DNA of 64,000 nt from positions 166 through 64,165 of the forward strand of contig DVKE01000048.1 of assembly GCA_018716225.1 (NCBI GenBank), read 5' to 3'. Origin of the DNA: Candidatus Onthousia faecigallinarum (lineage in GTDB: Bacteria; Bacillota_I; Bacilli_A; RF39; UBA660). Both the position numbers and the translations under genes were made by a program. Positions 471 to 62,805 of this stretch are shown here, one piece after another (positions within the stretch are counted from its first letter, which is position 1; the number at the start of each line of letters is the position of its first letter). The notes beneath the pieces were generated by a model, which was given only the letters and a program-made list of their open reading frames with translations, searched no databases and was not told the origin of the DNA.

Positions 471-1361
471 TTATTTATTAGTTAATAAATTATTTTCTTC
501 TTTTACTTGTTTTTGAAGCAACTCTAAATCTTTCATACTTTTACTATTTTGTAATGATTTCATTTGTCTTTTTGCAGATTCATTTAGTCTTATTAATCTC
601 TCTCTTTGGGATAACCCATCTTCAATTAATTCTGCACTTGTATTCTGTAAATTATTTAAAATGACTAAATGTAGTAAATCAGTATAATCTCTAATATTTC
701 CATTTTTAGCTAATTCTGGATTTTTATCTCTCCACTGTTTTGCTGTCATACCAAATAACGCTACATTTAAAATATCTGCTTCATCTGAATAAACGTGTTG
801 TTTTTGACTTTCTGTTAAATTCGGAATTATGCATTCTTTTATTGCATCAGTATGAACAACATAATTAACTTTAGATAAAAGTCTTGTTGCGCTCCATTCT
901 ATTTTATATTGATATGCTTCATTTGTTTTTAATCTTTCAAACTCTTTTATTAAATACAACTTAAATTCAGGAGATAACCAACTTGCAAATTCAAATGCAA
1001 TATCTGGATGAGCAAATGTTCCTTTACTATATTTTCCACTACTTGGGATAATACCAATAGCATTAAAATCTCTTTTCCAACGATTAGGTGTCATAGTGAA
1101 ACGATTGTATCCAACTTCATCAATTTTAATTCTGTGTGATTCCACGGAATTAAAATTTTCATTATTTAGTTCTTCCCATAAACTATAATAATCAAATGAA
1201 TTTTTATTTGACATCCAATTTCTAATTACTCCAGATGGATCCTCAGGATTTGCTTGTTTTGCTAAATCCGTTAAAGAAATATAATTAACATTTTCTACTC
1301 TTAATATACCTATTTTATTTTCTTTTACTACTATTTCAGTTGTTACTGAATCTTTTTTCAA
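471..1361 (-). CDS. KilA-N domain protein (phage antirepressor-like)
   Basis: The motif GTFAHPDIAFEFASWLSPEF matches the KilA-N signature (G.WAHPDLA.EFA.WLSPEF). It lies next to integrase remnants. Confidence 0.75.
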   Translation of the reverse strand: MKKDSVTTEIVVKENKIGILRVENVNYISLTDLAKQANPEDPSGVIRNWMSNKNSFDYYSLWEELNNENFNSVESHRIKIDEVGYNRFTMTPNRWKRDFNAIGIIPSSGKYSKGTFAHPDIAFEFASWLSPEFKLYLIKEFERLKTNEAYQYKIEWSATRLLSKVNYVVHTDAIKECIIPNLTESQKQHVYSDEADILNVALFGMTAKQWRDKNPELAKNGNIRDYTDLLHLVILNNLQNTSAELIEDGLSQRERLIRLNESAKRQMKSLQNSKSMKDLELLQKQVKEENNLLTNK

Positions 1362-1521
1362 TATTTATCTCTCCTTTCTATTTAAATTTTAAAAAATGTC
1401 AACAAATTTATTTTTGTTAACATCCTTTATTTTCAATAAATTTTGTACACTTTTTTCATAATTGGTTGACAAGCAATAAATTTATTACCTTTTCTAATAT
1501 TGATTTTTCCCTTATTTTATG

Positions 1522-1566
1522 CTACTTTCCGCAACATTGTTTATATTTTTTGCCCGAACCACATGA
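1522..1566 (-). other. Divergent duplicate of the secA 3' end (encodes ..SCGSGKKYKQCCGK*), a putative att remnant
   Basis: Minus-strand translation gives GMFSSCGSGKKYKQCCGK-stop. It is about 78% nucleotide identical to the true secA 3' end at 5321-5365 (PCPCGSGKKYKQCCGK-stop), with a shared 11-nt run CATTGTTTATA. Confidence 0.6.
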
Positions 1567-1589
1567 ACTGAACATTCCTATATTTATGT

Positions 1590-1693
1590 TATTTATTGTA
1601 TTTATAGTACTATTTGTATTTATTGTATTCCGGTATCAGGTATCATCTGTATTTATCGTATTTATAGTATTATCTGTACTTATAGTATTTATC
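1590..1693. repeat. About 11 tandem copies of a 9-bp unit GTATTTATN (iteron-like)
   Basis: Read directly: gtatttatc gtatttata gtattatct gtacttata gtatttatc, with earlier gtatttata/gtatttatt copies. Confidence 0.7.
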
Positions 1694-1697
1694 TACT

Positions 1698-1725
1698 GTG
1701 GACTATTTGTGGACATTGACCACAT
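1698..1725. repeat. TGTGGAC(T/A) x2 plus CCACAT motif cluster (reverse-complement of the TGTCCACA motifs at 5196-5262)
   Basis: tgtggacta at 1698-1706, tgtggacat at 1708-1716, accacat at 1719-1725. Confidence 0.5.
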
Positions 1726-1829
1726 TCGTTCACTGAAATAAGTATATCATATTTTTCTTTTTTATAAAATGTGCAAATTTAATAATTAATAATATCTATT
1801 TTTTATAATAATGAAATGTTACATATCTT

Positions 1830-2462
1830 TTATTTAGTTTTTATATTATTATTAGCAATATAGGGTTCATATACGTTTTTATATTTTTCTATTGTTTCAT
1901 CTACATTAAACCAATAAACATTTGTTAATATTCCATCAGATGGATCTACTTCTGTTCTTTCTAATTTACCACCTAATGCTTTTAAAGTTTTGTCTGAGCC
2001 AAGATTATTAACATCGCAATCAAGCATTACCTTTTCTAAACCTACTTTTTTTGCCTCTAACATCCCTAAATATAGATTTATCTTGTTATATCCTTTTCTT
2101 CTCTCTGTTGGTCTAATTCCATAACCTATATGTCCACCAAATCTTAGCATTGCTTCATTCAAATTCCATCTTACATTAATAGTTCCTACAATTTTATTAT
2201 CATTTTCTCTAATTAATAGAAATGTCCTGCCTTGACATCTTCCAACACTTTTAGCATATTCTTCATCTTCCATCTTTAGGCATCTATCAAGTGCTTCTTC
2301 AAAAGTATAGCCATCATAAATTTTATCTAATGAACCAGAACCATTTATATCTGATCCATATTTAACAAATTCATCAAGATATTCAATTATTTCATTTTTT
2401 CTTTCTAGTGATGGTATTTCAAAATAAAATTTTTCCACTAATATCACATCCTTATACATCAA
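1830..2462 (-). CDS. GNAT family N-acetyltransferase
   Basis: 210 aa. It has an acetyl-CoA binding-type segment (RCQGRTFLLIREND..IGYGIRPTERRKGY). It sits inside the putative island. Confidence 0.55.
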   Translation of the reverse strand: MMYKDVILVEKFYFEIPSLERKNEIIEYLDEFVKYGSDINGSGSLDKIYDGYTFEEALDRCLKMEDEEYAKSVGRCQGRTFLLIRENDNKIVGTINVRWNLNEAMLRFGGHIGYGIRPTERRKGYNKINLYLGMLEAKKVGLEKVMLDCDVNNLGSDKTLKALGGKLERTEVDPSDGILTNVYWFNVDETIEKYKNVYEPYIANNNIKTK

Positions 2463-2507
2463 TTATAACATAATTTCTTAAATAATTTACATTTTCAGAT
2501 ATCTTAC

Positions 2508-3736
2508 TTAATTCACATTTGACCTTATACTATTTTCAAATAATTTAATTACTTCATTTTTATCAACTTCTGTACTTCTAATATAATACTTTTCAGTAGT
2601 TTCTATCCTTCTATTTCCTAGTACTTCAGCAATATCTTTTATTTCACAACCATTTCTTAAACTAATAGTTGCAAAACTTCCTCTTAAATCATAAAATCTA
2701 CATTTTACTCCTAATTCATGATGGATTATTTTAAAAGGATATTTAACAATATCAGTTCCAGAATATGTTCCATCTTTCCTAGTAAATACCATATCTACTT
2801 TATTGTGTCTTGAATTACTTTCTACAATTTTATATTCAACTAACTTACCATATTTATTTTTTACTTCCTCTAAAACATGTTTTTTATAATTCTTACTGTA
2901 TTGCTTTTTATAATTATCTTGTATCTTTTTATAGTCTAGTAAAATTTTATATAAAGTGTCACATATATAAATCTCTCTTTGACTTTCAACTGTTTTGGTG
3001 GTACCTAAATACCATCTTCCTATTTCTTCTTTATCTTTTGCATACACAGTTTTATTTATTTTAATAATTCTATTATCTAAATCTATATCATTCCAAGTTA
3101 AAGCAAATACTTCGCCTGTTCTCATACCTGTATAACATGCAGTAAGAAATGCAGTTATAAATACTTTATTATTTTTAAATCTATTTAAAATTAGTTCTAT
3201 CTCTTCATTAGTATAGACATGACCTACATTGTTTTTTTTAATTCGAATGATAATACTCTAGGTATCTGTAAATCTGCTGCTGGATTATATTTAATAAATC
3301 CAAAATAATAAGTAGCATCTCTTAATGAACTTTTAATTACTTTTTGATAGTTTCTTAATGCTTCTTTTGTAGTAGAAGTTTGATATAGTCTTAGTAATGC
3401 TTGATTTAAACTAAATGAAGTAATTGCAGATAGTTTATAGTTACCTAACTCTCTTTTAATATTACCAAAAGATTCTTTATATCTTTTTGCTGTAGAATAT
3501 TTATAATTTATTTCAAAGTATTCTCTCATCCAGTAATCTAAATATTCAGAATATAACATATTACACTCTTTTGTACTTTCTCCACTAATAAATTCTTCAT
3601 ATGCTCTTTTTCCTGCTATATATGCATCTCTTTTTGTTTTAAAACCTGATTTTGATATTTGTTTTCTTTTACCATTTACCTTTCCTGCTTCAAATCTATA
3701 TTCATATAGATTATTTCTTTTTCTAATACTAATAAT
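2508..3736 (-). pseudogene. Tyrosine recombinase / phage integrase copy 2, disrupted by at least two frameshifts
   Basis: The C-terminal catalytic ORF (2508-3125, stop-to-stop up to 3257) has the R..HxxR..Y motifs (HHELGVKCRFYDLRGSFAT..NRRIETTEKYY). The SAM-like N-terminal domain is a separate ORF (3224-3559) in another frame. The junction lies in an A8/T8 homopolymer (3231-3240). The arm-binding N-terminus (GIIISIRKRNNLYEYRFEAGKVNGKRKQ) is out of frame with the ATG at 3734-3736. Confidence 0.75.
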
Positions 3737-8489: not shown

Positions 8490-8708
8490 CTATTCTTGTC
8501 TGGCTGGTTCTTTTATAGGAGTTACATCAACTGCTTGATAGCCCTTGCTTGTTTCAAGCAAAGTAAACTCTACATACTGACCTTCAGTTAACGTCTTATA
8601 ACCCTCACAGTTAATTGTTGAGTAATGAACAAATATATCTTCACCCTTTTTGTAGTCAATAAAGCCATACCCCTTTTCATTATTGAACCACTTTACTCTT
8701 CCAATCAC
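8490..8708 (-). CDS. Cold-shock protein (CspA family)
   Basis: The sequence [24 protein letters not shown] is a classic CSD. Confidence 0.9.
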
Positions 8709-8844
8709 GCTACAATCACCTCACATTCTTTTTAGTCTACCACCTTGTATTTCCAAATGTTGTAAACAGAGCATAACAAAGAACCAAAAATAAAGATAGT
8801 TTTTTTCTTTAAAAAGTCATTTCTTTTCTCTAAATGGCATCTTC

Positions 8845-8879
8845 AACAAGATTTTGTCGAAATATGTCGAATCTTGTTG
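8845..8879. promoter_or_regulatory. 9-bp inverted repeat enclosing two tandem TGTCGAA heptamers (Spo0A-box-like), in the cspA/agrB divergent intergenic region
   Basis: The sequence is caacaagat tt TGTCGAA ata TGTCGAA tcttgttg. The heptamers are 10 bp apart. Confidence 0.45.
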
Positions 8880-8959
8880 TAACAACCAGATATTATAAAA
8901 AAAATAAGGAAAAACAAAGAAAAAAAGTAGTACTCTTTTTGATAGATAAGGTGATACAT

Positions 8960-9550
8960 ATGAAAGAAAAATTCTTAAAAAGTTCTATGAATTTTATTAC
9001 CAAAAACGAAACAATAGATGAGGAAACAAAAGAAAAAATAGCTTTTGGCTTAGAAGGACTATATCTTTCTGTTACAAAGCTAATAATTATCAATCTACTA
9101 GCCTTTTCATTAGGAATTTGGCTAGAATTTGTAATTTTCTTAGCGTTGTTCAATTTTTTAAGATTTTTTGGATTCGGAGCTCATGCCAACAATTCAAAAA
9201 CTTGTCTCATTACATCATCCCTTTTACTTGTTGGAACACCCTATCTATTTTTAAAATTATCTTTGCCGACATATCTTATTTACACCTTATGTACTACTTC
9301 CATTATTATTTTTATCCTTTATGCACCAGCAGATACAGAAAAAAGACCATTAACAAATAAAAAGAAAAGGAAGATAAGAAAATTTATGACTGTTATAGTT
9401 GCTTGTATTTTTACCATCCTTATTGTTATACTTAAAAATCACACCATAAAGATGTTATTACTTAGTAGTCTCATAGTAGAAAGCATTATGGTTTTACCCA
9501 TTACTTATAAAATATTAAAAATACCGTATCGGAACTATTTAAAGGTTTAA
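8960..9550 (+). CDS. agrB: AgrB-like autoinducing-peptide processing peptidase / membrane protein
   Basis: 197 aa from the ATG at 8960 (RBS AAGGTGA). It is a multi-TM protein. The GAHANNSKTC segment places His and Cys 7 residues apart, as in S. aureus AgrB H77/C84. Confidence 0.75.
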   Translation: MKEKFLKSSMNFITKNETIDEETKEKIAFGLEGLYLSVTKLIIINLLAFSLGIWLEFVIFLALFNFLRFFGFGAHANNSKTCLITSSLLLVGTPYLFLKLSLPTYLIYTLCTTSIIIFILYAPADTEKRPLTNKKKRKIRKFMTVIVACIFTILIVILKNHTIKMLLLSSLIVESIMVLPITYKILKIPYRNYLKV

Positions 9551-9595: not shown

Positions 9596-9715
9596 ATGAA
9601 AAAAAGAGTTGCAAAAATTGTCGCTGCCATTGCTTTAATGTTAACGGCTAGTGCTAGTACAGGATGTGTCTTTTTGATTGCAGATGAACCTAAAGCATTA
9701 AAAAATATGGACTAA
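9596..9715 (+). CDS. agrD: AgrD-like autoinducing peptide precursor (39 aa)
   Basis: It has a strong RBS TAAGGAGGTG. It has an amphipathic leader MKKRVAKIVAAIALMLTASAST, then a single Cys in GCVFLIA and a charged tail DEPKALKNMD. It lies immediately downstream of agrB. Confidence 0.6.
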   Translation: MKKRVAKIVAAIALMLTASASTGCVFLIADEPKALKNMD

Positions 9716-9758: not shown

Positions 9759-11045
9759 TTAAATGACCGTTAATCTCTGAATAAAGAAATCATTTAACAC
9801 ATTATTCTCAGTAGATAAATACTTTGATTTTTGTATTGTTTTAGTAGCATAGTATAATCCTTTTCCATGTCCTTTCCCCTTTGTTGTATACCCTTTCTTG
9901 TTCATATCTTCAACTTTAACATTTCCTTCATAAGTATTTGATATTACAAAATTAACTTCTTCCTCTAAAGAATATATTTCTAGTGTAACCTGCTTTCTCT
10001 TTGATTCCTTTGCTGCCTCAATAGCATTATCTAAATATATTCCTAATACAATCCCAATATTCCTGATTTGTTTTGTAGTAAGTCTTTCTATCTTCTTCGT
10101 TACTTTTGAACTTACATCTACAATCATTTGTACTTTCTCATTTTTTGCAACTGCTATCTTATAATATAGTAGACCTTTTAACCCACCTTTAGGAACATTC
10201 TTTAAATCTTCTATATATTCTTCATCTACTATAATACTTACCTTCAACATATCATCGATTTTATCAATAACTTTCTTATTCTTTGTCATACTCCTTAACA
10301 TCGATAAATTATTCTTTAACTCATGTCGATACATCTGCTCATCATCTATCCAATTTTCAAAATCTTGTACATAATCAAATAATATATTGTATTCATCACT
10401 TAACTTTTGATACTTATCCTTCTCATCCAGATAAAAATAAGCTAACAAAATAAAAATTACTATACTAATAGATGTAATAGTATAATATAAATTAAGCTTA
10501 AAAACAGAAACTATATTATAATATAATAATGTTATTACTATTATTATCAAGATAAAAAAAAGAATCAATGTTAAATAATTATTTCTATCTATCTTCCCAC
10601 ATAAATTTTTTATCTTTATCTTTAAAAAACTGAAAGTCGACATAAAATAAGAAAAAAAGCCTATTATAATATTATTAATTAAAGCTAAACATAAATTTTT
10701 TCGAATGGAATAATATGGTATAAAATTCAATTCAATAGAAACAACTAACAAATCAAAAAGAGTAATCAATATAAAAAATATCCCACTAATCAAAATTGAA
10801 TTTACAAAACTAATTCGAAACATTTTATGAAACACAATCCCATAAACCAAAAAAGACAACAATAATACAAAAGAATTATATTCAACTTTATAAAATAAAC
10901 AAACTGGCAAAATCATAAAAAGAAAATAAATTAAATTCGAAATACTAAATATCTTTCTATCACTTTCCACTAGTTTGCGTACTATCAATAATGCAATTAT
11001 TGCCATAAATGAAGATCCCAATACTTTAATCAACAACAGTGACAT
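9759..11045 (-). CDS. agrC: AgrC-like sensor histidine kinase (HPK10 / GHKL)
   Basis: 428 aa. The N-terminal half is polytopic. The C-terminal has an HATPase_c region (NAIEAA..GHGKGLYY) and a coiled HisKA-like region. Confidence 0.75.
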   Translation of the reverse strand: MSLLLIKVLGSSFMAIIALLIVRKLVESDRKIFSISNLIYFLFMILPVCLFYKVEYNSFVLLLSFLVYGIVFHKMFRISFVNSILISGIFFILITLFDLLVVSIELNFIPYYSIRKNLCLALINNIIIGFFSYFMSTFSFLKIKIKNLCGKIDRNNYLTLILFFILIIIVITLLYYNIVSVFKLNLYYTITSISIVIFILLAYFYLDEKDKYQKLSDEYNILFDYVQDFENWIDDEQMYRHELKNNLSMLRSMTKNKKVIDKIDDMLKVSIIVDEEYIEDLKNVPKGGLKGLLYYKIAVAKNEKVQMIVDVSSKVTKKIERLTTKQIRNIGIVLGIYLDNAIEAAKESKRKQVTLEIYSLEEEVNFVISNTYEGNVKVEDMNKKGYTTKGKGHGKGLYYATKTIQKSKYLSTENNVLNDFFIQRLTVI

Positions 11046-11758
11046 TTCTCCATCAACTCCTTTTTATGATTTCGAGCAACCGCATCAAGCTTCATACCAT
11101 TAGAAAAATAAATGACATTTGATTTCACATCAAAAGTACGAACCATATTAAGATTTACTAAAAAACCTCTATGTACCTTTAAAAAACGTTTATCTAATGT
11201 TTTCTCTAATTCAACGATAGACTTAGGAACTTTAAAGGTTCCATACGTAGTATAAACAATAGATCTCTTACTCTCTTGTTCCTTTTCAATATACACAATC
11301 TTACGAAATTCAATTTTATGAAGCATATAATTATATTCATAAGTTAAACATTTCTCCCTTGTATCATAATGTTTCATAATAATTTTTAAGACACTTAAAA
11401 TTTTGTCATCAATACCTCCACATTTAGAAATAAAATCTAATAAAAACAAACGATTCGTCAACGCCGTATATCTATATTCATCATACGCCGTCACAATAAC
11501 GATTAAAGAATTCCAATCTTCTACTTTTTCACGGATAAGTCTAGCAGCATCAATCCCAGAAGCATTACCCGTTCTAATATCAAGAAAATAAACCTTATAT
11601 CCGATATCAGCTGTTGTAATCCCATTAAAATCATGATCATAACAATCAAAAGAATAGATATTATAACTAGTATTATAATTCATCATGAACTTTCTGATAT
11701 CATTTTTCATAACTTCTAAAAACTTTTCATCATCATCACATAAAATAAAATTTAGCAT
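11030..11758 (-). CDS. agrA: LytTR-family response regulator (AgrA-like)
   Basis: It has a receiver domain (ILCDDDE) and a C-terminal LytTR DNA-binding domain (FLKVHRGFLVNLNMV). The start is chosen at MLNFIL, with RBS GGGAG 7 nt upstream. Confidence 0.75.
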   Translation of the reverse strand: MLNFILCDDDEKFLEVMKNDIRKFMMNYNTSYNIYSFDCYDHDFNGITTADIGYKVYFLDIRTGNASGIDAARLIREKVEDWNSLIVIVTAYDEYRYTALTNRLFLLDFISKCGGIDDKILSVLKIIMKHYDTREKCLTYEYNYMLHKIEFRKIVYIEKEQESKRSIVYTTYGTFKVPKSIVELEKTLDKRFLKVHRGFLVNLNMVRTFDVKSNVIYFSNGMKLDAVARNHKKELMEKCHCC

Positions 11759-11866
11759 ACTACAACTCTCCCTTCTAAAAATCATACATAGATAATTTTA
11801 CCATATTTTTCCTTTTTAGAACGAAAAAAGACAAGAAAAAAGAATAGTTATAAAGCCATATGTCGC

Positions 11867-16514: not shown

Positions 16515-16711
16515 TTTATCTCTCCTTCCGCCATGATAAATTAATTACCATAGTAATTCAATTCGCTAATTAATATATCAGATTTTTTTTAAATTTGCAA
16601 GGCTTTTTTCACTCACCAAATATTCCTTAAACTCATCCGATACATTTATCATTATCTATTCAATTCTCAAAATCTTGTACTGTCAAACTCTTTTGCAAAA
16701 GAGTCAACAGA

Positions 16712-21100: not shown

Positions 21101-21928
21101 TTATTCATTTTTGGGTAAAACAAAAAGCATTCTATTTCGACCTTGCATATCTTTTTCCACAACAACTCTTCGATCTGGGTATGTTTTTTCCACAAGACTT
21201 GTTAATAAATCCTTTTGATCCGATCCTATTTCAAAAGCAAAAAGAGTAGAATCTTTTTGATAAGGGTAAGATGTTTCTAAAATTTGGCGATAGCAATCGA
21301 TCCCTTCTTTTCCGCCATACAAAGCCAAAGATGGCTCATTTCCTCTTACAATTTTCTCAATTTCTTCTCCATCTTTAATATAAGGAGGATTGGAAACAAT
21401 AATATCATATTGTTCAATAGGAAGATTAGAAAACCAATCACTCTGATAAAAAGTAACATCTGCTTCTAGTCTCTTTGCATTTTCCTTCGCTACGATAAGA
21501 GCCTTTTCACTTTTATCCACTAAAGTAACAAGAAGATTAGGAAGTTTTTTCTTTAACGTAATACCAATACAGCCACTTCCACATCCAAGATCTAAAACAG
21601 ACAAATTGTTTTTTCCACAATTCTGTTCATACTGCAAAACCTTTTCAACTAGTTCTTCCGTTTCAAAGCGTGGAATTAACACATCTTGATTTACCAAAAA
21701 CTCATAGCCATAAAAATTGACATGCCCGATCACATATTGGATCGGATAATTGTTTTTTAAAGCCAAGACTTTTCTTTGATATTCTTGAACCAAATTAGGT
21801 TCTACCTCTAGATCCAAAATCAGCAAAAGTTCTAAGGGATTTTTCTTTAATAAATCGGCCAGTAAAAGCTTTGCATGACTACTGCTGATATACTTCTTAC
21901 CATATACAATTAAATCTTCAACGCGCAT
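21101..21928 (-). CDS. prmC: Release factor glutamine methyltransferase
   Basis: It has the NPPY motif (VSNPPYI) and a SAM-binding DLGCGSG motif. Confidence 0.9.
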   Translation of the reverse strand: MRVEDLIVYGKKYISSSHAKLLLADLLKKNPLELLLILDLEVEPNLVQEYQRKVLALKNNYPIQYVIGHVNFYGYEFLVNQDVLIPRFETEELVEKVLQYEQNCGKNNLSVLDLGCGSGCIGITLKKKLPNLLVTLVDKSEKALIVAKENAKRLEADVTFYQSDWFSNLPIEQYDIIVSNPPYIKDGEEIEKIVRGNEPSLALYGGKEGIDCYRQILETSYPYQKDSTLFAFEIGSDQKDLLTSLVEKTYPDRRVVVEKDMQGRNRMLFVLPKNE

Positions 21929-22127
21929 ATTTTCTTTTTCCTTTGGAATAAGTTTTTAGAAAAGAAGGATTAAAAACGGTTTTCTCTTTTTCGAAATAAA
22001 GATGAGAAGACAAAGTATGACAATGAGTACAAAAAGTCTTATCCTCTTCTAAAATATAAGGTTTATCAAGCGAAAAACAATCTGGATAAAAAGTGATTTT
22101 TCCACAATTTAAACACATCTTTTTCAT
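21918..22127 (-). CDS. Small zinc-ribbon protein (hypothetical)
   Basis: 69 aa with CxxC..CxxC motifs (CLNCG, CTHCH). Its start overlaps the prfA stop (ATGA) and its end overlaps the prmC start. Confidence 0.4.
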   Translation of the reverse strand: MKKMCLNCGKITFYPDCFSLDKPYILEEDKTFCTHCHTLSSHLYFEKEKTVFNPSFLKTYSKGKRKYAR

Positions 22128-40380: not shown

Positions 40381-41271
40381 TTACTGATCTAAATTCATAA
40401 TTTCAAGAATTCTAGTTAAATCATTTGCATTTGTAAATTTAATTTCAATTTTATTATTTTTAATTTTTACTTTTGTTCCCAATTTTTCACAAAGATTATC
40501 CGCTACATAATCATATTCATTATGCTCTTTTTTTGTTTTTGATATTTCCTTTTTACGATGATATTCCAAAGGAGAAGAAGTTAATTCTTCTAATTTTCGA
40601 ACACTAAGGCCATCATTTACAACCTTATCAGCCAATTCCAAAATCTGCTTTTTATCGTTTAATTTACTTAAAATACGAGCATGGCCCATGGTTAACTGAC
40701 CTGTTGTAATATAATCTTTTACTTCTTCTGGAAGTTGTAAAAGACCTAACATATTCGTAACATGACTACGACTCTTTCCTACTTTCTTTGCTAGTTCTTC
40801 TTGGGTTAAATGAAGAGATTCTTGTAATTTTTGATAAGCGGTCGCTTCCTCTAAAGCAGACAAATCCTCTCTTTGTAAGTTCTCAAGAAGAGCAATTTCC
40901 ATCATCTCTTCATCGGTAAAGTTTTTAACAATCGCCGGTATTGTTTCTAAACCAGCCATCCGACTTGCTTTTACTCTACGTTCTCCAGCAATGATCTCAT
41001 ATCCTTTTACACTTTTTTTCGCAATAATAGGTTGAAAAACGCCATGTTTTTTAATTGAATCTGCAAGTTCTTGTAAAGATTCTTCCTCAAAATTTTTACG
41101 AGGTTGATAAGGATTACTACGTAGCTCATCCAATTTAAGATTAACAATACTCTCTTTTGGCGTACTATCAATAATTCGCTCTTCTACTTGACTAATATCC
41201 ATCTGTTCACTACTGAACAATTCTTCTAATCCTTTTCCCAACGCTCTTCTTTTAGTTTCCATTTTGTTCAA
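40381..41271 (-). CDS. spo0J: Chromosome partitioning protein ParB/Spo0J
   Basis: GERRVKASRMAGLETIPAIV has the ParB box and an HTH. Confidence 0.9.
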   Translation of the reverse strand: MNKMETKRRALGKGLEELFSSEQMDISQVEERIIDSTPKESIVNLKLDELRSNPYQPRKNFEEESLQELADSIKKHGVFQPIIAKKSVKGYEIIAGERRVKASRMAGLETIPAIVKNFTDEEMMEIALLENLQREDLSALEEATAYQKLQESLHLTQEELAKKVGKSRSHVTNMLGLLQLPEEVKDYITTGQLTMGHARILSKLNDKKQILELADKVVNDGLSVRKLEELTSSPLEYHRKKEISKTKKEHNEYDYVADNLCEKLGTKVKIKNNKIEIKFTNANDLTRILEIMNLDQ

Positions 41272-42037
41272 TCACTTCCTTTGCTAGATTTAAATAAGCC
41301 TCTGCCCCTTTACTTTTTGGATCATAAACAATAATTGGTTCTCCATGACTTGGCGCTTCTGTTAAACGAATTAACCGAGGGATAATGGTATTATAAACCT
41401 TTTCTTTGAAAAATTTGCGTATATCATCAACCACTTCAAATCCCAAGTTTGTTCTTGAATCTAACATAGTTAAGAGTACTCCTTCAATATCTAAGTTTGG
41501 ATTTAATTGCTTTTGAGCTAACCGAATGGTATTCAAAAGTTGCATAATTCCCTCTAAAGCAAAAAATTCACATTGAACAGGAATAATAACAGAATCACTT
41601 GCTGTTAAAGCATTCGTGGTAATAAGGCCTAACGAAGGAGGACAATCAATGATAATAAAATCAAATTTATCTTTGATTAATGCCAGATGTTGTTTTAATT
41701 GAGCACCTTTTACAAAGCTAGGATCTGTTTGACTTTTCTCCATTAATTCAATATCAAGTCCAGCTAAATTGATCGTAGCCGGCAAAACATAAAGTTGTTT
41801 ATATTTCGTCTTAACCATAGCATCAAGAATATTACACTTGTTGGTCAAAACATCATAAACACTTCTTTCAATATCTCCTTTATTAATTCCAACACCAGTA
41901 GTCGTATTTCCTTGCGGATCAAGATCGATCAACAAAACCCTTTTTCCAAAAAAAGCTAGTGAAGCTGAAAGGTTAATACTAGTAGTTGTCTTTCCTACTC
42001 CGCCTTTTTGATTCACTAATGAAATAACCTTTCCCAT
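41252..42037 (-). CDS. soj: Chromosome partitioning ATPase ParA/Soj
   Basis: It has Walker A KGGVGKTT. The start is chosen at MGKVISL, with RBS GAGTGA. The longer ORF extends to 42118. Confidence 0.9.
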   Translation of the reverse strand: MGKVISLVNQKGGVGKTTTSINLSASLAFFGKRVLLIDLDPQGNTTTGVGINKGDIERSVYDVLTNKCNILDAMVKTKYKQLYVLPATINLAGLDIELMEKSQTDPSFVKGAQLKQHLALIKDKFDFIIIDCPPSLGLITTNALTASDSVIIPVQCEFFALEGIMQLLNTIRLAQKQLNPNLDIEGVLLTMLDSRTNLGFEVVDDIRKFFKEKVYNTIIPRLIRLTEAPSHGEPIIVYDPKSKGAEAYLNLAKEVIEQNGN

Positions 42038-42140
42038 ATTTATCACTCTCTTCTTTTTCCATCTAGTACTCTTATTTATTGTATCAAAAATAAAAAGAGT
42101 TGAAAACCATTTTAGCAAAAAAAGTAGATTTCTCTACTTC

Positions 42141-43646
42141 TTAACTTTCTTTTTCCTTGGTAATTTTGATTACAATTTGATAATTCTTTTCAAAGTCCAT
42201 CTCTTCAATATCTACTTTGAAACCACTCGCTTCGATATCTTTTACAGTATTACGAATTAATTCGATAGATTCATTTAAATCATAATGAGGTTTTGCCTCC
42301 ACAGTTTGTTGTTTGATACCTTCCAATTTCTGAACATCGTCCGCAAAAATAGGATTATGAGCGAAAGGATTACTATAAGTATCCAAATAAGGTATTTTGT
42401 CTTCTTCTTTTGATGATGGAGCTGTTAAACTAGAATCAACAACAGGAGGAGTTTTTCCAACTCCAGCAAGAAGAGTGTCCATAGAAGTAGGAGTCGATGA
42501 TTCCATTTCCTTTTTCGAAGGAGTAAAATCATCTGCCGTAATTCCTGGGGTAGGAATAATATTTGCATTAATATTACTGCCTTCTTGGTTATTTGGTTTA
42601 TTCTCTTGTCTTTCTTCCTCTTTATCATCTAATGGTTGAAAGAAACGAAAAGTAGATGGAGAAGGATCACTTGATGAAGAGGTTGATGAATTATCATCAG
42701 AAGATTTTGATTCCGTCGTTCCTTTTAATAAATCATCAGTATTAACGTTTTTCGGAATACTTTGAGGAATATCTTGAGCCGTTGCCTTCATCTCATCTAA
42801 ATTAATAGGCATACTAGCAGTGCTTGTCAAATCACTATCAATAGTCTTCGGTACATCTTCACCATAATCAATAAATTTTGGAGGAGTACTATAATCAATT
42901 CCAACACTTTGATTGAACTCTGAAGAAGTAGAAGCTGGGATAGAAGTTGTAGAAGTATTCGAAGAAGATACTTTCGTTTCTGGTTCATTTACCGGTACTG
43001 CCTTTGTTTTTAATAATTGCTCCATTTCTTCTGTTGAAACGGTTGGCTTTTGATTAATCTTCTCTTCCAATTCCCGAACAGTCATTTTTTTATCAATAAT
43101 TTCCTTTAGCAATTCTTTTTGCTTTTCTTTATCTGGAACACTAAGAAGAGCTCTAGCATGTCTTTCTGAAATTTGATCTTTTAATAAAGCATCTTGCACT
43201 TCTTCTGGTAAAGATAATAATCGAAGTTTATTCGCAACTGCACTTTGACTTTTTCCCATTGTCTTAGCAAGTTCTTCTTGAGTCATCTGATCAAGTTCCA
43301 AAATCTTTTGATAAGTTCTTGCTTCTTCAATAGGATTCAAATTTTTCCTTTGTAAATTTTCAAGTAAAGCTACCTTACTACTTTCTTTATCATCTAAATT
43401 ACGAACAATCGCTGGAATTTTCGTAAGACCAGCTAATGCAGAAGCCTTATATCGACGCTCTCCAGCAATAATTTCATATTTATTTCCAATATTTCGAACA
43501 ATAATTGGTTGAATTACTCCATGCTCCTTAATAGAAACAGCTAATTCTTTCAACGATTTCTCATCAAAAACCTGTCTTGGCTGAAAACGATTTGGAATAA
43601 TATCATCTAAATATAAATATACAACTTCATTTTCATTATTTTGCAT
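42141..43646 (-). CDS. noc: ParB-family Noc-like protein with a long low-complexity S/T/P-rich C-terminal extension
   Basis: The N-terminal 200 aa is ParB/Noc-like (GERRYKASALAGLTKIPAIV). It is followed by about 270 aa of low complexity, then a short conserved C-terminal domain. Confidence 0.6.
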   Translation of the reverse strand: MQNNENEVVYLYLDDIIPNRFQPRQVFDEKSLKELAVSIKEHGVIQPIIVRNIGNKYEIIAGERRYKASALAGLTKIPAIVRNLDDKESSKVALLENLQRKNLNPIEEARTYQKILELDQMTQEELAKTMGKSQSAVANKLRLLSLPEEVQDALLKDQISERHARALLSVPDKEKQKELLKEIIDKKMTVRELEEKINQKPTVSTEEMEQLLKTKAVPVNEPETKVSSSNTSTTSIPASTSSEFNQSVGIDYSTPPKFIDYGEDVPKTIDSDLTSTASMPINLDEMKATAQDIPQSIPKNVNTDDLLKGTTESKSSDDNSSTSSSSDPSPSTFRFFQPLDDKEEERQENKPNNQEGSNINANIIPTPGITADDFTPSKKEMESSTPTSMDTLLAGVGKTPPVVDSSLTAPSSKEEDKIPYLDTYSNPFAHNPIFADDVQKLEGIKQQTVEAKPHYDLNESIELIRNTVKDIEASGFKVDIEEMDFEKNYQIVIKITKEKES

Positions 43647-43748: not shown

Positions 43749-45468
43749 GTAACAGTTCAGACTTAGACACTGAAAAAGAAGAGTAATTTCAAAGTTGCTC
43801 TTTTATTATGAAAATAATATTTGTTTATTAAATATAGCTTTGATAGATTCAAAAGGATTTATTCCTCTTTTTATAGAGGTCTTTATTATCGATAGAGTAT
43901 TTACATAATGTTTCGCTGCTTCCATACTTCTAAATCCACCTGATATTTTTGTTTTAGTTTTAAACATTCTTAAATCTTGCTCACTTAAATTATTATCAAA
44001 TGGTACTTCAAAATCTTTTATAAAGTATAAATGATTACTTTTGTACTTCTTTAATCTTCTGTATAGTTTGTTTGCTTTCTCTTTATAGTAACTGGATTTT
44101 ATTAATTTGTTTTCCTCCTTTGCTAATTCTAAAAGACTATCAAATTCTTTTTCATATTCTTTTATCTTATCCTTATCAAATTTTTTTAATCCAAAACTAA
44201 TAGCTATTTTTTTAGTATTATTCATCCTAAAAATAAATTCTTTCAACTTTGTTGCCCAAGTTATATTTTTTATATTTTGAATCAGTTCCTCTAAGTATCT
44301 TCCTACATGAATATTACATTCATAATTTTCTATTCCATATCTTTGTAATGTAGTATCATGATCTCCCATAATACCACCACAAAAACGGGTAAGGATATTA
44401 TCCTCTTGAATAGGGCTATGTCCCTTATTTTTATGTGCTTTATAAATAACAGTATTTTCATTACTATAATTTCTCACATACATATTCTTCTCATTAAACT
44501 TAGTTCCCGTTTCGTCGGTATAGGTGTACTTACTATCAAGTATATCCTTTTCTAAGATTTCTAGTGTAGGGATACATTTATGACTAAACTCATAAAAAAT
44601 ATTTACAAGATTTCCTTTTGATATTCGAATTACTCCATCTGTTATTACATTAAAGAAATAGTCAATCTATCATATGATATAACATTATAAACACCTAATT
44701 CAATGGAAAGTGCTTTTATACTGTTATCATAAGTAACATCAGTATAGAACTCTTTTGGAAGAGTATCTTTTGCATTTTCTTCATATCTAAATACATGTTT
44801 TTCAACATAAGGCTTTATTTCTATTCCTAGTTTATATTTTATTATATTTTCTTTTGATGCCTTGCCTTTTATAGTATGAGAAAATTCTCTTACTTCCACT
44901 TTTTTCTTTTCAATTAATTTTTCAACAGTTTCTTTATTTAATGAATGGCCAATATGTCCATATTGTCCCCCTGATTTCTTTATGCTCTTGATTCTATAAT
45001 TGTATATGTTAGAGCCTGTCTTCTTTTTAGGAGTAGTCATATTAGTGGATGATGGTTTCGAAGAATTAGAACTATTTTTATTATTTTTGTTTTTTAATCT
45101 GTCTATTTCTTCTAATAATTGTGTAATTTTTTCATCTTTTTCTTGGATAATTTTATTTAATTTCTTTATTTCTAAATTGAGGTTATAAATAATTAGTGAT
45201 TGTTCATTTATTTTTTGTAATGATGCGTCTAATTTTTTAGAAATTTCTTCCAATTGCTTAAACATATCTGTCATATATCCTTTACCCATTTAAATCACTA
45301 TCCTCTATAGATTATAGTATTACAATAAATCATTTATAAATCAATAGTTTTGAAGCGATTTCTTAAATCTGTGGATAAAGTAAAAATAAGAGTCCATAAA
45401 ACCCTTATTTTTCAATACCTATTTTATTCAATTGTGCATAATTTTTTGTTTAAGATCTGAACTGTTAC
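43749..45468. mobile_element. IS66-family insertion sequence (single-transposase type), 1720 bp, with 13-bp terminal inverted repeats GTAACAGTTCAGA and an 8-bp target site duplication TCATAAAT
   Basis: The left end is GTAACAGTTCAGA at 43749-43761. The right end is its reverse complement at 45456-45468. The duplications TCATAAAT lie at 43741-43748 and 45469-45476. Confidence 0.75.
43806..45289 (-). pseudogene. IS66-family transposase, frameshifted near 44645-44666
   Basis: The N-terminal ORF (44645-45289) has a coiled-coil and KSGGQYGHIGHS block. The C-terminal ORF (43806-44483, stop-to-stop up to 44666) has the YTDETGTK DDE region and DNNLSEQDLR..KISGGFRSMEAAKHYVNTLSIIKT. The two are in different frames. 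Confidence 0.7.
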
Positions 45469-52959: not shown

Positions 52960-53160
52960 TCCCCACAAGCTATTTTTTATTTTTCCACAAAATTCACAGG
53001 CTGTGGAAAACAAAAATAAACATGTGCATAACAAATCTGTGGAAAATGTGGAAAACTCTATTTTTCCTTAAAATAAAACACAATTATCTGTGGAGAAAAT
53101 TGTCGAAAAATTGTGGATAAAATTTTTTTCAATTTTTTCTATTCCTTTTTCCACAGTTTT
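52960..53160. promoter_or_regulatory. oriC: oriC part 1: DnaA-box cluster upstream of dnaA, with an adjacent TGTCGAA heptamer
   Basis: Seven boxes match TTATCCACA within 1 mismatch: 52981-52989, 53002-53010, 53038-53046, 53047-53055, 53089-53097, 53112-53120 (perfect) and 53147-53155. TGTCGAA lies at 53101-53107. Confidence 0.85.
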
Positions 53161-54571: not shown

Positions 54572-54665
54572 CTGTGAATAACTTTTTCTTATAAACATAC
54601 TTTTCCACAAAGAAAAGTTAAAAAAAATGATATAATAAAAAAGAAATATGAGTTTTCCACAGTTT
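54572..54665. promoter_or_regulatory. oriC: oriC part 2: DnaA boxes plus AT-rich unwinding region between dnaA and dnaN
   Basis: tgtgaataa at 54572-54580, ttttccaca at 54601-54609 and 54654-54662, and an A/T-rich run at 54618-54650. Confidence 0.75.
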
Positions 54666-55838: not shown

Positions 55839-55946
55839 AAAGTTCTATTTTTTTCCACAATAGCCAAAATTCGACAAAATCCGACAATAAAATATAGTAT
55901 ACTGAGAACCAAAAACAGTTACTATCACTGTAAGGGGAGAGGAAAA

Positions 55947-56417
55947 ATGGAAGAAAAAGCATATGAAATCAATGATGCTACATTAGCGATAATACCAGAA
56001 AAAAAGAAAGGATCTTTAATTTTAGAGGAAGAGTTTCAATATGAGAATTCAAAAAATCCACTAGAATTAATCAACTATAGTTGTAAATACTTTGGTAGTA
56101 CTTACGAAGGAAGGAGAGATGGAGCAAAAGAAATTCTGTTAAGTAAATACAAATTACCTATTATGATTGAAGACAGTAGAAATTTAATTTTTTTACCAAC
56201 AGAATCGCCAGAAAGCAATGATTGTGCCTGGCTTGCTCTCAATAAAATTAAGAATGTAGAGAAAATTGATAATGAGAAAGACAAAACCATAGTAGAATTT
56301 CATAATGGCCAAAGATTAGTATTAAATATCTCGTACAATTCTATGCAAAATCAAATATTACGGGCAAGTAGATTAGATTCTATTTTAAGAAATAGAAAAA
56401 ATCGAGAAAAGTTATAA
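55947..56417 (+). CDS. comK: ComK-family competence transcription factor
   Basis: It aligns with B. subtilis ComK: YEINDATLAIIPE / YEVNGATIAVLPE; SCKYFGSTYEGRRDGAKE / SCRFFGSSYAGRKAGTYE; LPIMIEDSRNLIFLPTESPESNDCAWLAL / PPIMVDPSNQIFLFPTLSSTRPQCGWISH; ISYNSMQNQILRASRL / ISYNSFENQVYRTAWL. Confidence 0.8.
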   Translation: MEEKAYEINDATLAIIPEKKKGSLILEEEFQYENSKNPLELINYSCKYFGSTYEGRRDGAKEILLSKYKLPIMIEDSRNLIFLPTESPESNDCAWLALNKIKNVEKIDNEKDKTIVEFHNGQRLVLNISYNSMQNQILRASRLDSILRNRKNREKL

Positions 56418-62658: not shown

Positions 62659-62687
62659 TTGAAAAAATATAAAAAAAAAGGTAATAT
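62659..62687 (+). promoter_or_regulatory. Sigma-A-type promoter of the SRP RNA gene (TTGAAA-17-TAATAT)
   Basis: -35 TTGAAA at 62659-62664, a 17-nt spacer, and -10 TAATAT at 62682-62687. Confidence 0.5.
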
Positions 62688-62691
62688 AAAT

Positions 62692-62771
62692 ACGTGCAAT
62701 AAGTAAATGTGGAATCAGGTCAGGATGGAAACATAGCAGCCTTAACATAATTTACTTATGTGCACTTTTTT
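62692..62771 (+). ncRNA. ffs: Signal recognition particle RNA (small 4.5S type)
   Basis: It has the domain IV signature CAGGUCAGG-AU-GGAA-ACAU-AGCAGCC. A long terminal helix pairs GUGCAAUAAGUAAAU with AUUUACUUAUGUGCAC. A U7 run follows. Confidence 0.7.
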
Positions 62772-62805
62772 TGATCTTGAATTACTATAAAAGGAATGTG
62801 ATAAA

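Follow-up and report, generated by a model that had tools for sequence, protein, structure and literature searches.

Conserved TGTCGAA boxes at agrB, comK and oriC of an uncultured Bacilli lineage are predicted operators of one regulator, probably Spo0A

The heptamer TGTCGAA recurs at three regulatory places in the stretch of DNA analyzed here (64,000 nucleotides, hereafter the window): upstream of the quorum-sensing gene agrB, upstream of a comK gene and within the origin of replication. This raises the question of whether a single regulator acts at all three and, if so, which one. A preliminary description of the sequence had proposed one regulator, most simply Spo0A, and that proposal is supported as far as sequence goes. 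Relatives that have diverged in the surrounding DNA still carry the heptamer at all three loci. Because it is kept at all three places in related genomes, TGTCGAA at agrB, comK and oriC is very probably a real regulatory site. On its sequence properties we consider it probable, with some room left for doubt, that the heptamers are operators of one regulator, namely, the phosphorylated form of Spo0A. The features on which the argument turns are collected in Table 1.

Table 1. Predicted sites and genes at the agr locus, oriC and comK (positions are those of the window)
Feature	Position	Strand	Remarks
csp, cold-shock protein gene	8490..8708	-	Pfam CSD; divergent from agrB
LytTR/AgrA-type direct repeats	TCTTTAAAAAGT 8806-8817 + TCTCTAAATGGC 8827-8838	+	21-bp period; repeat search
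Inverted repeat, perfect, 10 bp	8844-8853 CAACAAGATT + 8870-8879 AATCTTGTTG		Encloses both agrB boxes
Putative 0A-box 1, TGTCGAA	8855..8861	+	105 nt 5' of agrB ATG at 8960
Putative 0A-box 2, TGTCGAA	8865..8871	+	3 bp after box 1; 10-bp period
agrB	8960..9550	+	Pfam AgrB E=8e-35; ribosome-binding site AAGGTGA before likely start 8960
agrD	9596..9715	+	39-aa autoinducing-peptide precursor (…STGCVFLIADEPKALK…)
agrC-like histidine kinase	9759-11045	-	Pfam HATPase_c_5; NCBIfam AgrC match weak
LytTR response regulator	11030-11785	-	Pfam LytTR; NCBIfam AgrA match weak
oriC DnaA-box cluster	52981..53155		Six TTWTCCACA boxes, 5' of dnaA
One-mismatch DnaA box TGTGGAGAA	53090-53098		On the other side of the oriC 0A-box
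Putative single 0A-box, TGTCGAA	53101..53107	+	Among DnaA boxes, about 106 nt before likely TTG start 53207
Perfect DnaA box TTATCCACA	53112-53120	-	
DnaA box TTTTCCACA, the lineage's own form	55851..55859	+	11 bp 5' of the distal comK 0A-box
Putative comK distal 0A-box, TTCGACA on +	55870..55876	-	At the -35 position
Putative comK proximal 0A-box, TCCGACA on + (= TGTCGGA, one mismatch)	55880..55886	-	About -25 to -19
Predicted -10 TATAGT of the comK promoter	55893..55898	+	6 bp after the proximal box
comK	55947..56417	+	Pfam ComK E=2.4e-43; between dnaN and recF

The agr genes lie in a neighborhood with the order secA-hpf-csp<>agrBD<agrCA, which is kept in relatives, the hpf-csp<>agrB portion being present in all clades checked. 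The agrC-like kinase and LytTR regulator genes (9759..11785, minus strand) are convergent to agrBD, and relatives likewise have a 39-aa open reading frame 3' of agrB. The automatic call for agrB gives a protein of 238 aa from an ATG at 8834 that runs over the boxes. AgrB homologues are 194-202 aa long, and their length of about 197 aa, together with the ribosome-binding site, makes 8960 the likely start. The csp<>agrB intergenic region (8709-8959) contains both boxes, which form a tandem, TGTCGAA-ATA-TGTCGAA, at 8855-8871, 89 bp 5' of agrB. The 18-mer TTGTCGAAATATGTCGAA (8854-8871, plus strand), described earlier as a tandem TGTCGAA element, does contain both and is hereby confirmed. Since csp and agrB have one common intergenic region, the boxes may control the divergent csp as well. 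LytTR sites are pairs of imperfect direct repeats about 21 bp apart, situated just 5' of a promoter, and a pair of this type (8806..8838) stops 16 nt before the first box. Its equivalents (ccGTAAATtGT ... ccTTAAATGGT) are found 5' of agrB in most clades, box-less ones included, and across clades the repeats end 15-19 nt short of the first box. A window-wide search for TAAANNG-N14-TAAANNG returned 21 matches against 20 expected, the pattern being too degenerate.

As a single heptamer, TGTCGAA is not enriched in the window (7 copies against 4.9 expected), with four of the seven being the intergenic sites at agrB, comK and oriC. The tandem TGTCGRA-N3-TGTCGRA, in contrast, occurs twice against an expectation of 0.00, and when up to two mismatches are allowed there are four occurrences against 0.65 expected, all four at agrB, comK and oriC. 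The specificity extends to a sequence set of 674 kb, made up of the window and some 610 kb from relatives, in which every tandem (at most one mismatch) is non-coding and lies 5' of agrB, 5' of comK, in oriC or 5' of a kinase gene adjoining agr.

The last of these settings is seen in the clade of L057 and L068 (relatives are given by locus number), where three phased boxes, TGTCGAAtttTGTCGAAtaaTGTCAAA (L068 2415-2441), lie 11 bp 5' of a TATAAT; L070-L080 and L085-L087 also belong to this three-box clade. The boxes of L068 are about 40 bp 5' of a gene for a 411-aa multi-pass membrane HisKA/HATPase kinase that adjoins agr, and the agr locus beside this kinase has its own agrB upstream region without boxes. 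The 411-aa HisKA kinase may serve in sporulation and be subject to feedback by Spo0A.

For the conservation of the agrB boxes, 80 loci from metagenomes (AgrB identity 42-81%) were pooled with the loci collected earlier and grouped into 34 clusters (<85% amino-acid identity). The exact heptamer is present in 17 of the 34 clusters, always 75-115 bp 5' of the agrB ATG, and missing from the other half; in 8 of the 34 it forms a tandem with a 10-bp period. Its background elsewhere in the same loci is 12 in 206.5 kb (0.058 per kb), and a naive binomial P for box conservation at agrB, uncorrected for the shared ancestry of the clusters, is about 1e-24. The flanking DNA is unalignable between clades while the heptamer stays. 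The closest relative, L003 (81% identity), has three phased boxes 5' of agrB, and the tandem is kept in both L003 and L008, with 3 boxes there. The box reads TGTCGAA in the clade of the window and TTCGACA in most others, at the same position, with L019, L026, L027, L039 and others being inverted relative to the window, L003, L009, L011 and L012; despite this inversion between clades, the boxes hold their distance to the LytTR repeats and to the ATG. The palindromic TCGA core may ease orientation flips of this kind, which occur at both agrB and oriC and are awkward for an orientation-dependent activator. The extended motif derived from 23 agrB-upstream boxes is aWTT-TGTCGAA-aWWt. The relatives carry the label "uncultured Bacilli bacterium," and human-gut metagenomes are the source of several of the loci.

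Several further candidates around the agrB boxes were considered and set aside. The inverted repeat enclosing both boxes had been given as perfect and 9 bp long; it is perfect, but its arms, 16 nt apart in our repeat search, measure 10 bp. Folded as DNA, the segment 8844..8879 does better than shuffled sequences (z = -2.97), yet the repeat is absent from L003, and the window shows no enrichment of the repeat's 9-mer (30 copies against 25 expected with at most one mismatch). We therefore dropped it as an operator or hairpin and regard it as probably species-specific and incidental. A near-perfect 21-bp palindrome, ATCTTGTTG-TAA-CAACCAGAT, lies at 8871-8891, directly 3' of box 2, and with it a span of 48 bp holds a 9-mer resembling CAACAAGAT three times. 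The palindrome is not kept in L003 and was dropped as a functional element. A TACTWT pattern, counted by hand as a possible -10 of agr, failed under a stricter criterion. No -10 element is consistently placed 3' of the agr boxes across the clades compared.

At comK the pair TTCGACA-AAA-TCCGACA (55870-55886) is the reverse-complement twin of the agrB tandem. The earlier account of this site was right in both the reverse-complement pair and the TATAGT -10, but its coordinates, 55872-55889, were 2 nt too high. A promoter scan returned TCGACA-16-TATAGT with 10 of 12 matches. The order dnaA-dnaN-comK-recF-gyrB-gyrA holds in all ComK loci fetched (L088-L094), and alignment shows box-N6-TATART to be invariant in six lineages (the window, L001, L088, L090, L091 and L092), at 54-76% ComK identity. 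Additional boxes are phased with it at 10 bp, to give two in the window and L001 and four in L088. The exact box was not found at comK in L093 and L094 (46-50% ComK identity). The DnaA box 5' of the comK boxes is also present in L001, at about 2137-2145. DnaA might act on comK too, or the spacer between dnaN and comK might be part of the origin.

The origin has a single copy of the heptamer. It had been said to abut the perfect DnaA box, and the copy is indeed at 53101, but a gap of 4 bp separates the two. Two further DnaA boxes, at 54601 and 54653, fall between dnaA and dnaN, and across the window there are 20 DnaA boxes against 1.9 expected. The automatic call for dnaA, 492 aa from a GTG at 53090, runs across the oriC box; the homologue length of about 452 aa and a ribosome-binding site point to TTG 53207 as the likely start. 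The window, L091 and L092 have in common gtggagaaa(t/a)tTGTCGAAaa inside the DnaA-box array. L088/L089 and L090 instead carry TTCGACA about 25 bp further 5' and have a DnaA-type box where the window has its oriC 0A-box (TGTGGAAAA in L088 and TGTTGATAA in L090). With an exact box in the DnaA-box cluster in five lineages, each of these five origins keeps one consensus box. At the place of the window's oriC box, L088 has a DnaA box only one base different, which makes the window's box ambiguous when taken alone. Far from the origin, in or near prmC and prfA, four matches to the TTTTCCACA DnaA box, all on the plus strand, fall within about 950 bp (21153-22106).

Spo0A is named as the probable binder because of the heptamer itself, its 3-bp spacer, its A/T flanks and the presence of sporulation genes in the window. 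TGTCGAA is the 0A-box core, which Spo0A of B. subtilis and Spo0A of C. difficile both recognize, through contacts with G2, C4 and G5, and 0A boxes have been described with A/T flanks (PMC3485338). The core is exact at 8855, 8865, 53101 and 55870 (minus strand), with one mismatch, TGTCGGA, at 55880 (minus strand). Box pairs in the same orientation with a 3-bp gap are present, as in high-affinity Spo0A dimer sites, and the 23 agrB-upstream sites match the A/T-rich flanks of 0A boxes. In core, spacing, flanks and conserved regulatory location alike, the sites thus qualify as predicted 0A-box operators. SpoIIR, GerQ and a SpoIIQ-like protein are encoded in the window, and BofA is encoded just past its end on the identical contig L096. 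From these four we take the organism to be an endospore former and to possess spo0A, a gene whose product is described as the master regulator in all endospore formers (10.1101/2022.02.07.479450). A tblastn search with B. subtilis Spo0A found no spo0A in the window or the fetched loci. The 10 kb of L096 past the window end, where bofA, holB, rsmI, pth and mfd lie, contain no spo0A, sigH, spoIIA/E/G or abrB and no further box.

Conservation shows that a protein binds, not which protein, and regulators of the OmpR/PhoB family, too, typically have direct repeats with a period of 10 bp as their sites. A different regulator, for instance of the OmpR/PhoB type, whose sites resemble 0A boxes by coincidence would accord with Spo0A not having been located in the window or the fetched loci, and the three boxes before the agr-adjoining histidine kinase could reflect autoregulation of another two-component system. 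All seven core positions, the A/T flanks and the spacing nevertheless match Spo0A, the targets (comK, oriC/dnaA and a sensor kinase) mirror known Spo0A targets, and the genome belongs to a spore former, so that we hold a different regulator to be distinctly improbable. At agrB the boxes precede an agr operon with a LytTR regulator, and the preliminary description had raised the alternative that the direct repeats are AgrA (LytTR) autoinduction sites. The boxes, however, are 10 bp apart, against about 21 bp for LytTR repeats, and the heptamer is also found at comK and oriC, where no 21-bp-period repeats were seen. A distinct conserved LytTR pair lies just 5' (16 bp from the boxes, with a 21-bp period) and is kept even in clades without TGTCGAA; we accordingly reject AgrA as the reader of the TGTCGAA repeats and leave it hardly any probability.

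The heptamers could also be degenerate DnaA boxes (TGTCGAAAA against TGTGGAAAA of the lineage), with DnaA as the common regulator: the difference is one base, the oriC box of the window takes the place of a true DnaA box of L088, and a perfect DnaA box lies 11 bp 5' of the comK boxes. Within 200 bp 5' of agrB in the 34 clusters, however, there are 23 copies of TGTCGAA but none of TGTGGAA or TGTGGAT, and given this absence the agrB boxes cannot be taken for DnaA boxes. At agrB and comK the fourth position, where selection for DnaA binding would favor G, is invariably C; with this fourth base, no box at either gene matches the DnaA 9-mer TTWTCCACA (TGTGGAWAA). DnaA as the common regulator is therefore very improbable, while for the oriC box alone the reading as a degenerate DnaA box is unlikely to a much lesser degree. 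The heptamers might, finally, need no dedicated regulator, being either chance occurrences or parts of promoters, with TCGACA serving as a -35 or CGAAT as the -10 of a sigma-H promoter. TCGACA does score as a -35 at comK, and ACAAGATTT-N11-GTCGAATCT at the agrB site of the window resembles the sigma-H consensus. Yet the most conserved comK box is 6 bp from the -10 and not at -35, GAAT and AAGA are not conserved in L003, L009, L011 and L012, the orientation flips, and the tandem has an expectation of zero. The sigma-H promoter was dropped for its lack of conservation in related clades, and we consider this whole class of explanation next to negligible. Binding by Spo0A remains the reading that we prefer.

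Paired Spo0A 0A-boxes at a repressed promoter are familiar from B. subtilis abrB. They are also known from the A2c promoter of phages phi29 and Nf, where Spo0A footprints two boxes 3 bp apart and represses transcription (PMC2731898). Its site 0A-1 shares with the sites described here the TGTCGAA core, the same-orientation pair with a 3-bp gap and the overlap with a core promoter (PMC2731898); the present sites differ in being predicted and in belonging to an uncultured low-GC Bacilli host with other targets. At PcomK of B. subtilis, Spo0A~P binds both activating and repressing sites, A1-A3 and R1-R2 (PMC3297582), and the comK promoter of the window is similar in its predicted direct Spo0A input and in sites near the core promoter that suit repression. 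The B. subtilis sites have 1-2 mismatches each and act with Rok (PMC3297582), whereas those found here are consensus or have one mismatch, the key box is between -35 and -10, and comK lies between dnaN and recF. In B. subtilis oriC, Spo0A~P binds 0A boxes overlapping DnaA boxes (PMC5295017; also Castilla-Llorente 2006, known here through its citation in PMC2731898), and Spo0A~P blocks replication at origin 0A boxes (PMC2731898). The origin of the window is reminiscent of this in having a 0A-box of DnaA-box-like sequence within a DnaA-box array beside dnaA, but has one consensus box per origin, in a position and orientation that vary between clades. In C. difficile, RgaR activates agrB1D1 through repeats with critical G residues at -51 and -72 (PMC10602386). 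The 21-bp-period repeats 5' of agrB and the possible link between agr and sporulation are alike in the two systems, while the TGTCGAA boxes are an extra element beside the LytTR repeats. A full-text literature search found no report of direct Spo0A binding to, or control of, an agr promoter. Spo0A input to comK and oriC is thus already known in B. subtilis, and the agr link is a new predicted connection, which the comparison across relatives supports well.

The identity, spacing, positions and conservation of the motif are established, and we infer from them the following scheme, including Spo0A as the binder and the way in which it acts at each site. Two boxes 3 bp apart would hold one Spo0A dimer. 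At comK, where the conserved box is situated between -35 and -10 and the window has a second box over -35, occupancy by Spo0A~P would exclude RNA polymerase and turn competence off once Spo0A~P is high; repression by promoter occlusion is the predicted effect to which we commit here. At agr, the box pair 16 bp 3' of the LytTR repeats and before agrB would allow Spo0A to gate quorum-sensing autoinduction. Repression or anti-activation, as an orientation-independent block of AgrA-dependent transcription, is the effect that we favor, without confidence and at about even chances, and co-activation is a tentative second possibility. At oriC, the box among the DnaA boxes suggests that Spo0A~P might hinder DnaA assembly or dnaA transcription. 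Jointly, the three sites would, once a cell commits to sporulation, switch off the programs that compete with it, namely, signaling, competence and new replication rounds. That this entire scheme holds across the lineage, with Spo0A binding between the AgrA repeats and agrBD, gating autoinduction, shutting comK and touching oriC, we put at somewhat below even.

If confirmed, one regulator would tie together sporulation, peptide quorum sensing, competence and replication initiation, and, if the scheme is true, a compact three-way commitment switch would be contained in about 47 kb around the origin. The known direction in clostridia is that agr promotes sporulation; gating of agr by Spo0A would, if true, reverse that direction and close a feedback loop. 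The comK and oriC sites would carry models established in B. subtilis over to a distant organism with a much smaller genome, and the conserved module in which LytTR repeats precede paired 0A boxes by 16 bp would offer a handy system for studying two response regulators on one promoter. Confirmation would also yield a regulatory map, open to testing, for a gut lineage that is uncultured and has been seen in metagenomes alone.

Several features of the window lie apart from the boxes. Mobile-element remnants at 471-3559 include a KilA-N protein and a phage integrase split in two open reading frames (2508-3125 and 3224-3559), and IS66-family transposase fragments are inserted near the origin at 43806-45289, with a parB-like gene on one side and rsmG on the other. 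At 40381-43646, parA is flanked by two ParB-family genes (296 aa and 501 aa); the 501-aa protein is unusually long, with ParB domains only in its N-terminal 200 residues. Rfam recognizes no known RNA family at the agrB, comK or oriC sites, and the only families at the gathering score are the small SRP RNA (62683-62781) and the L31 ribosomal-protein leader (16522-16553). The segment 52806-64000 of the window equals L096 1-11195, being 100% identical to ENA ERZ27280775 k141_262410 (117,897 bp), which extends about 53 kb past the window end, and strains 97.6-99.9% identical are present in three other samples.
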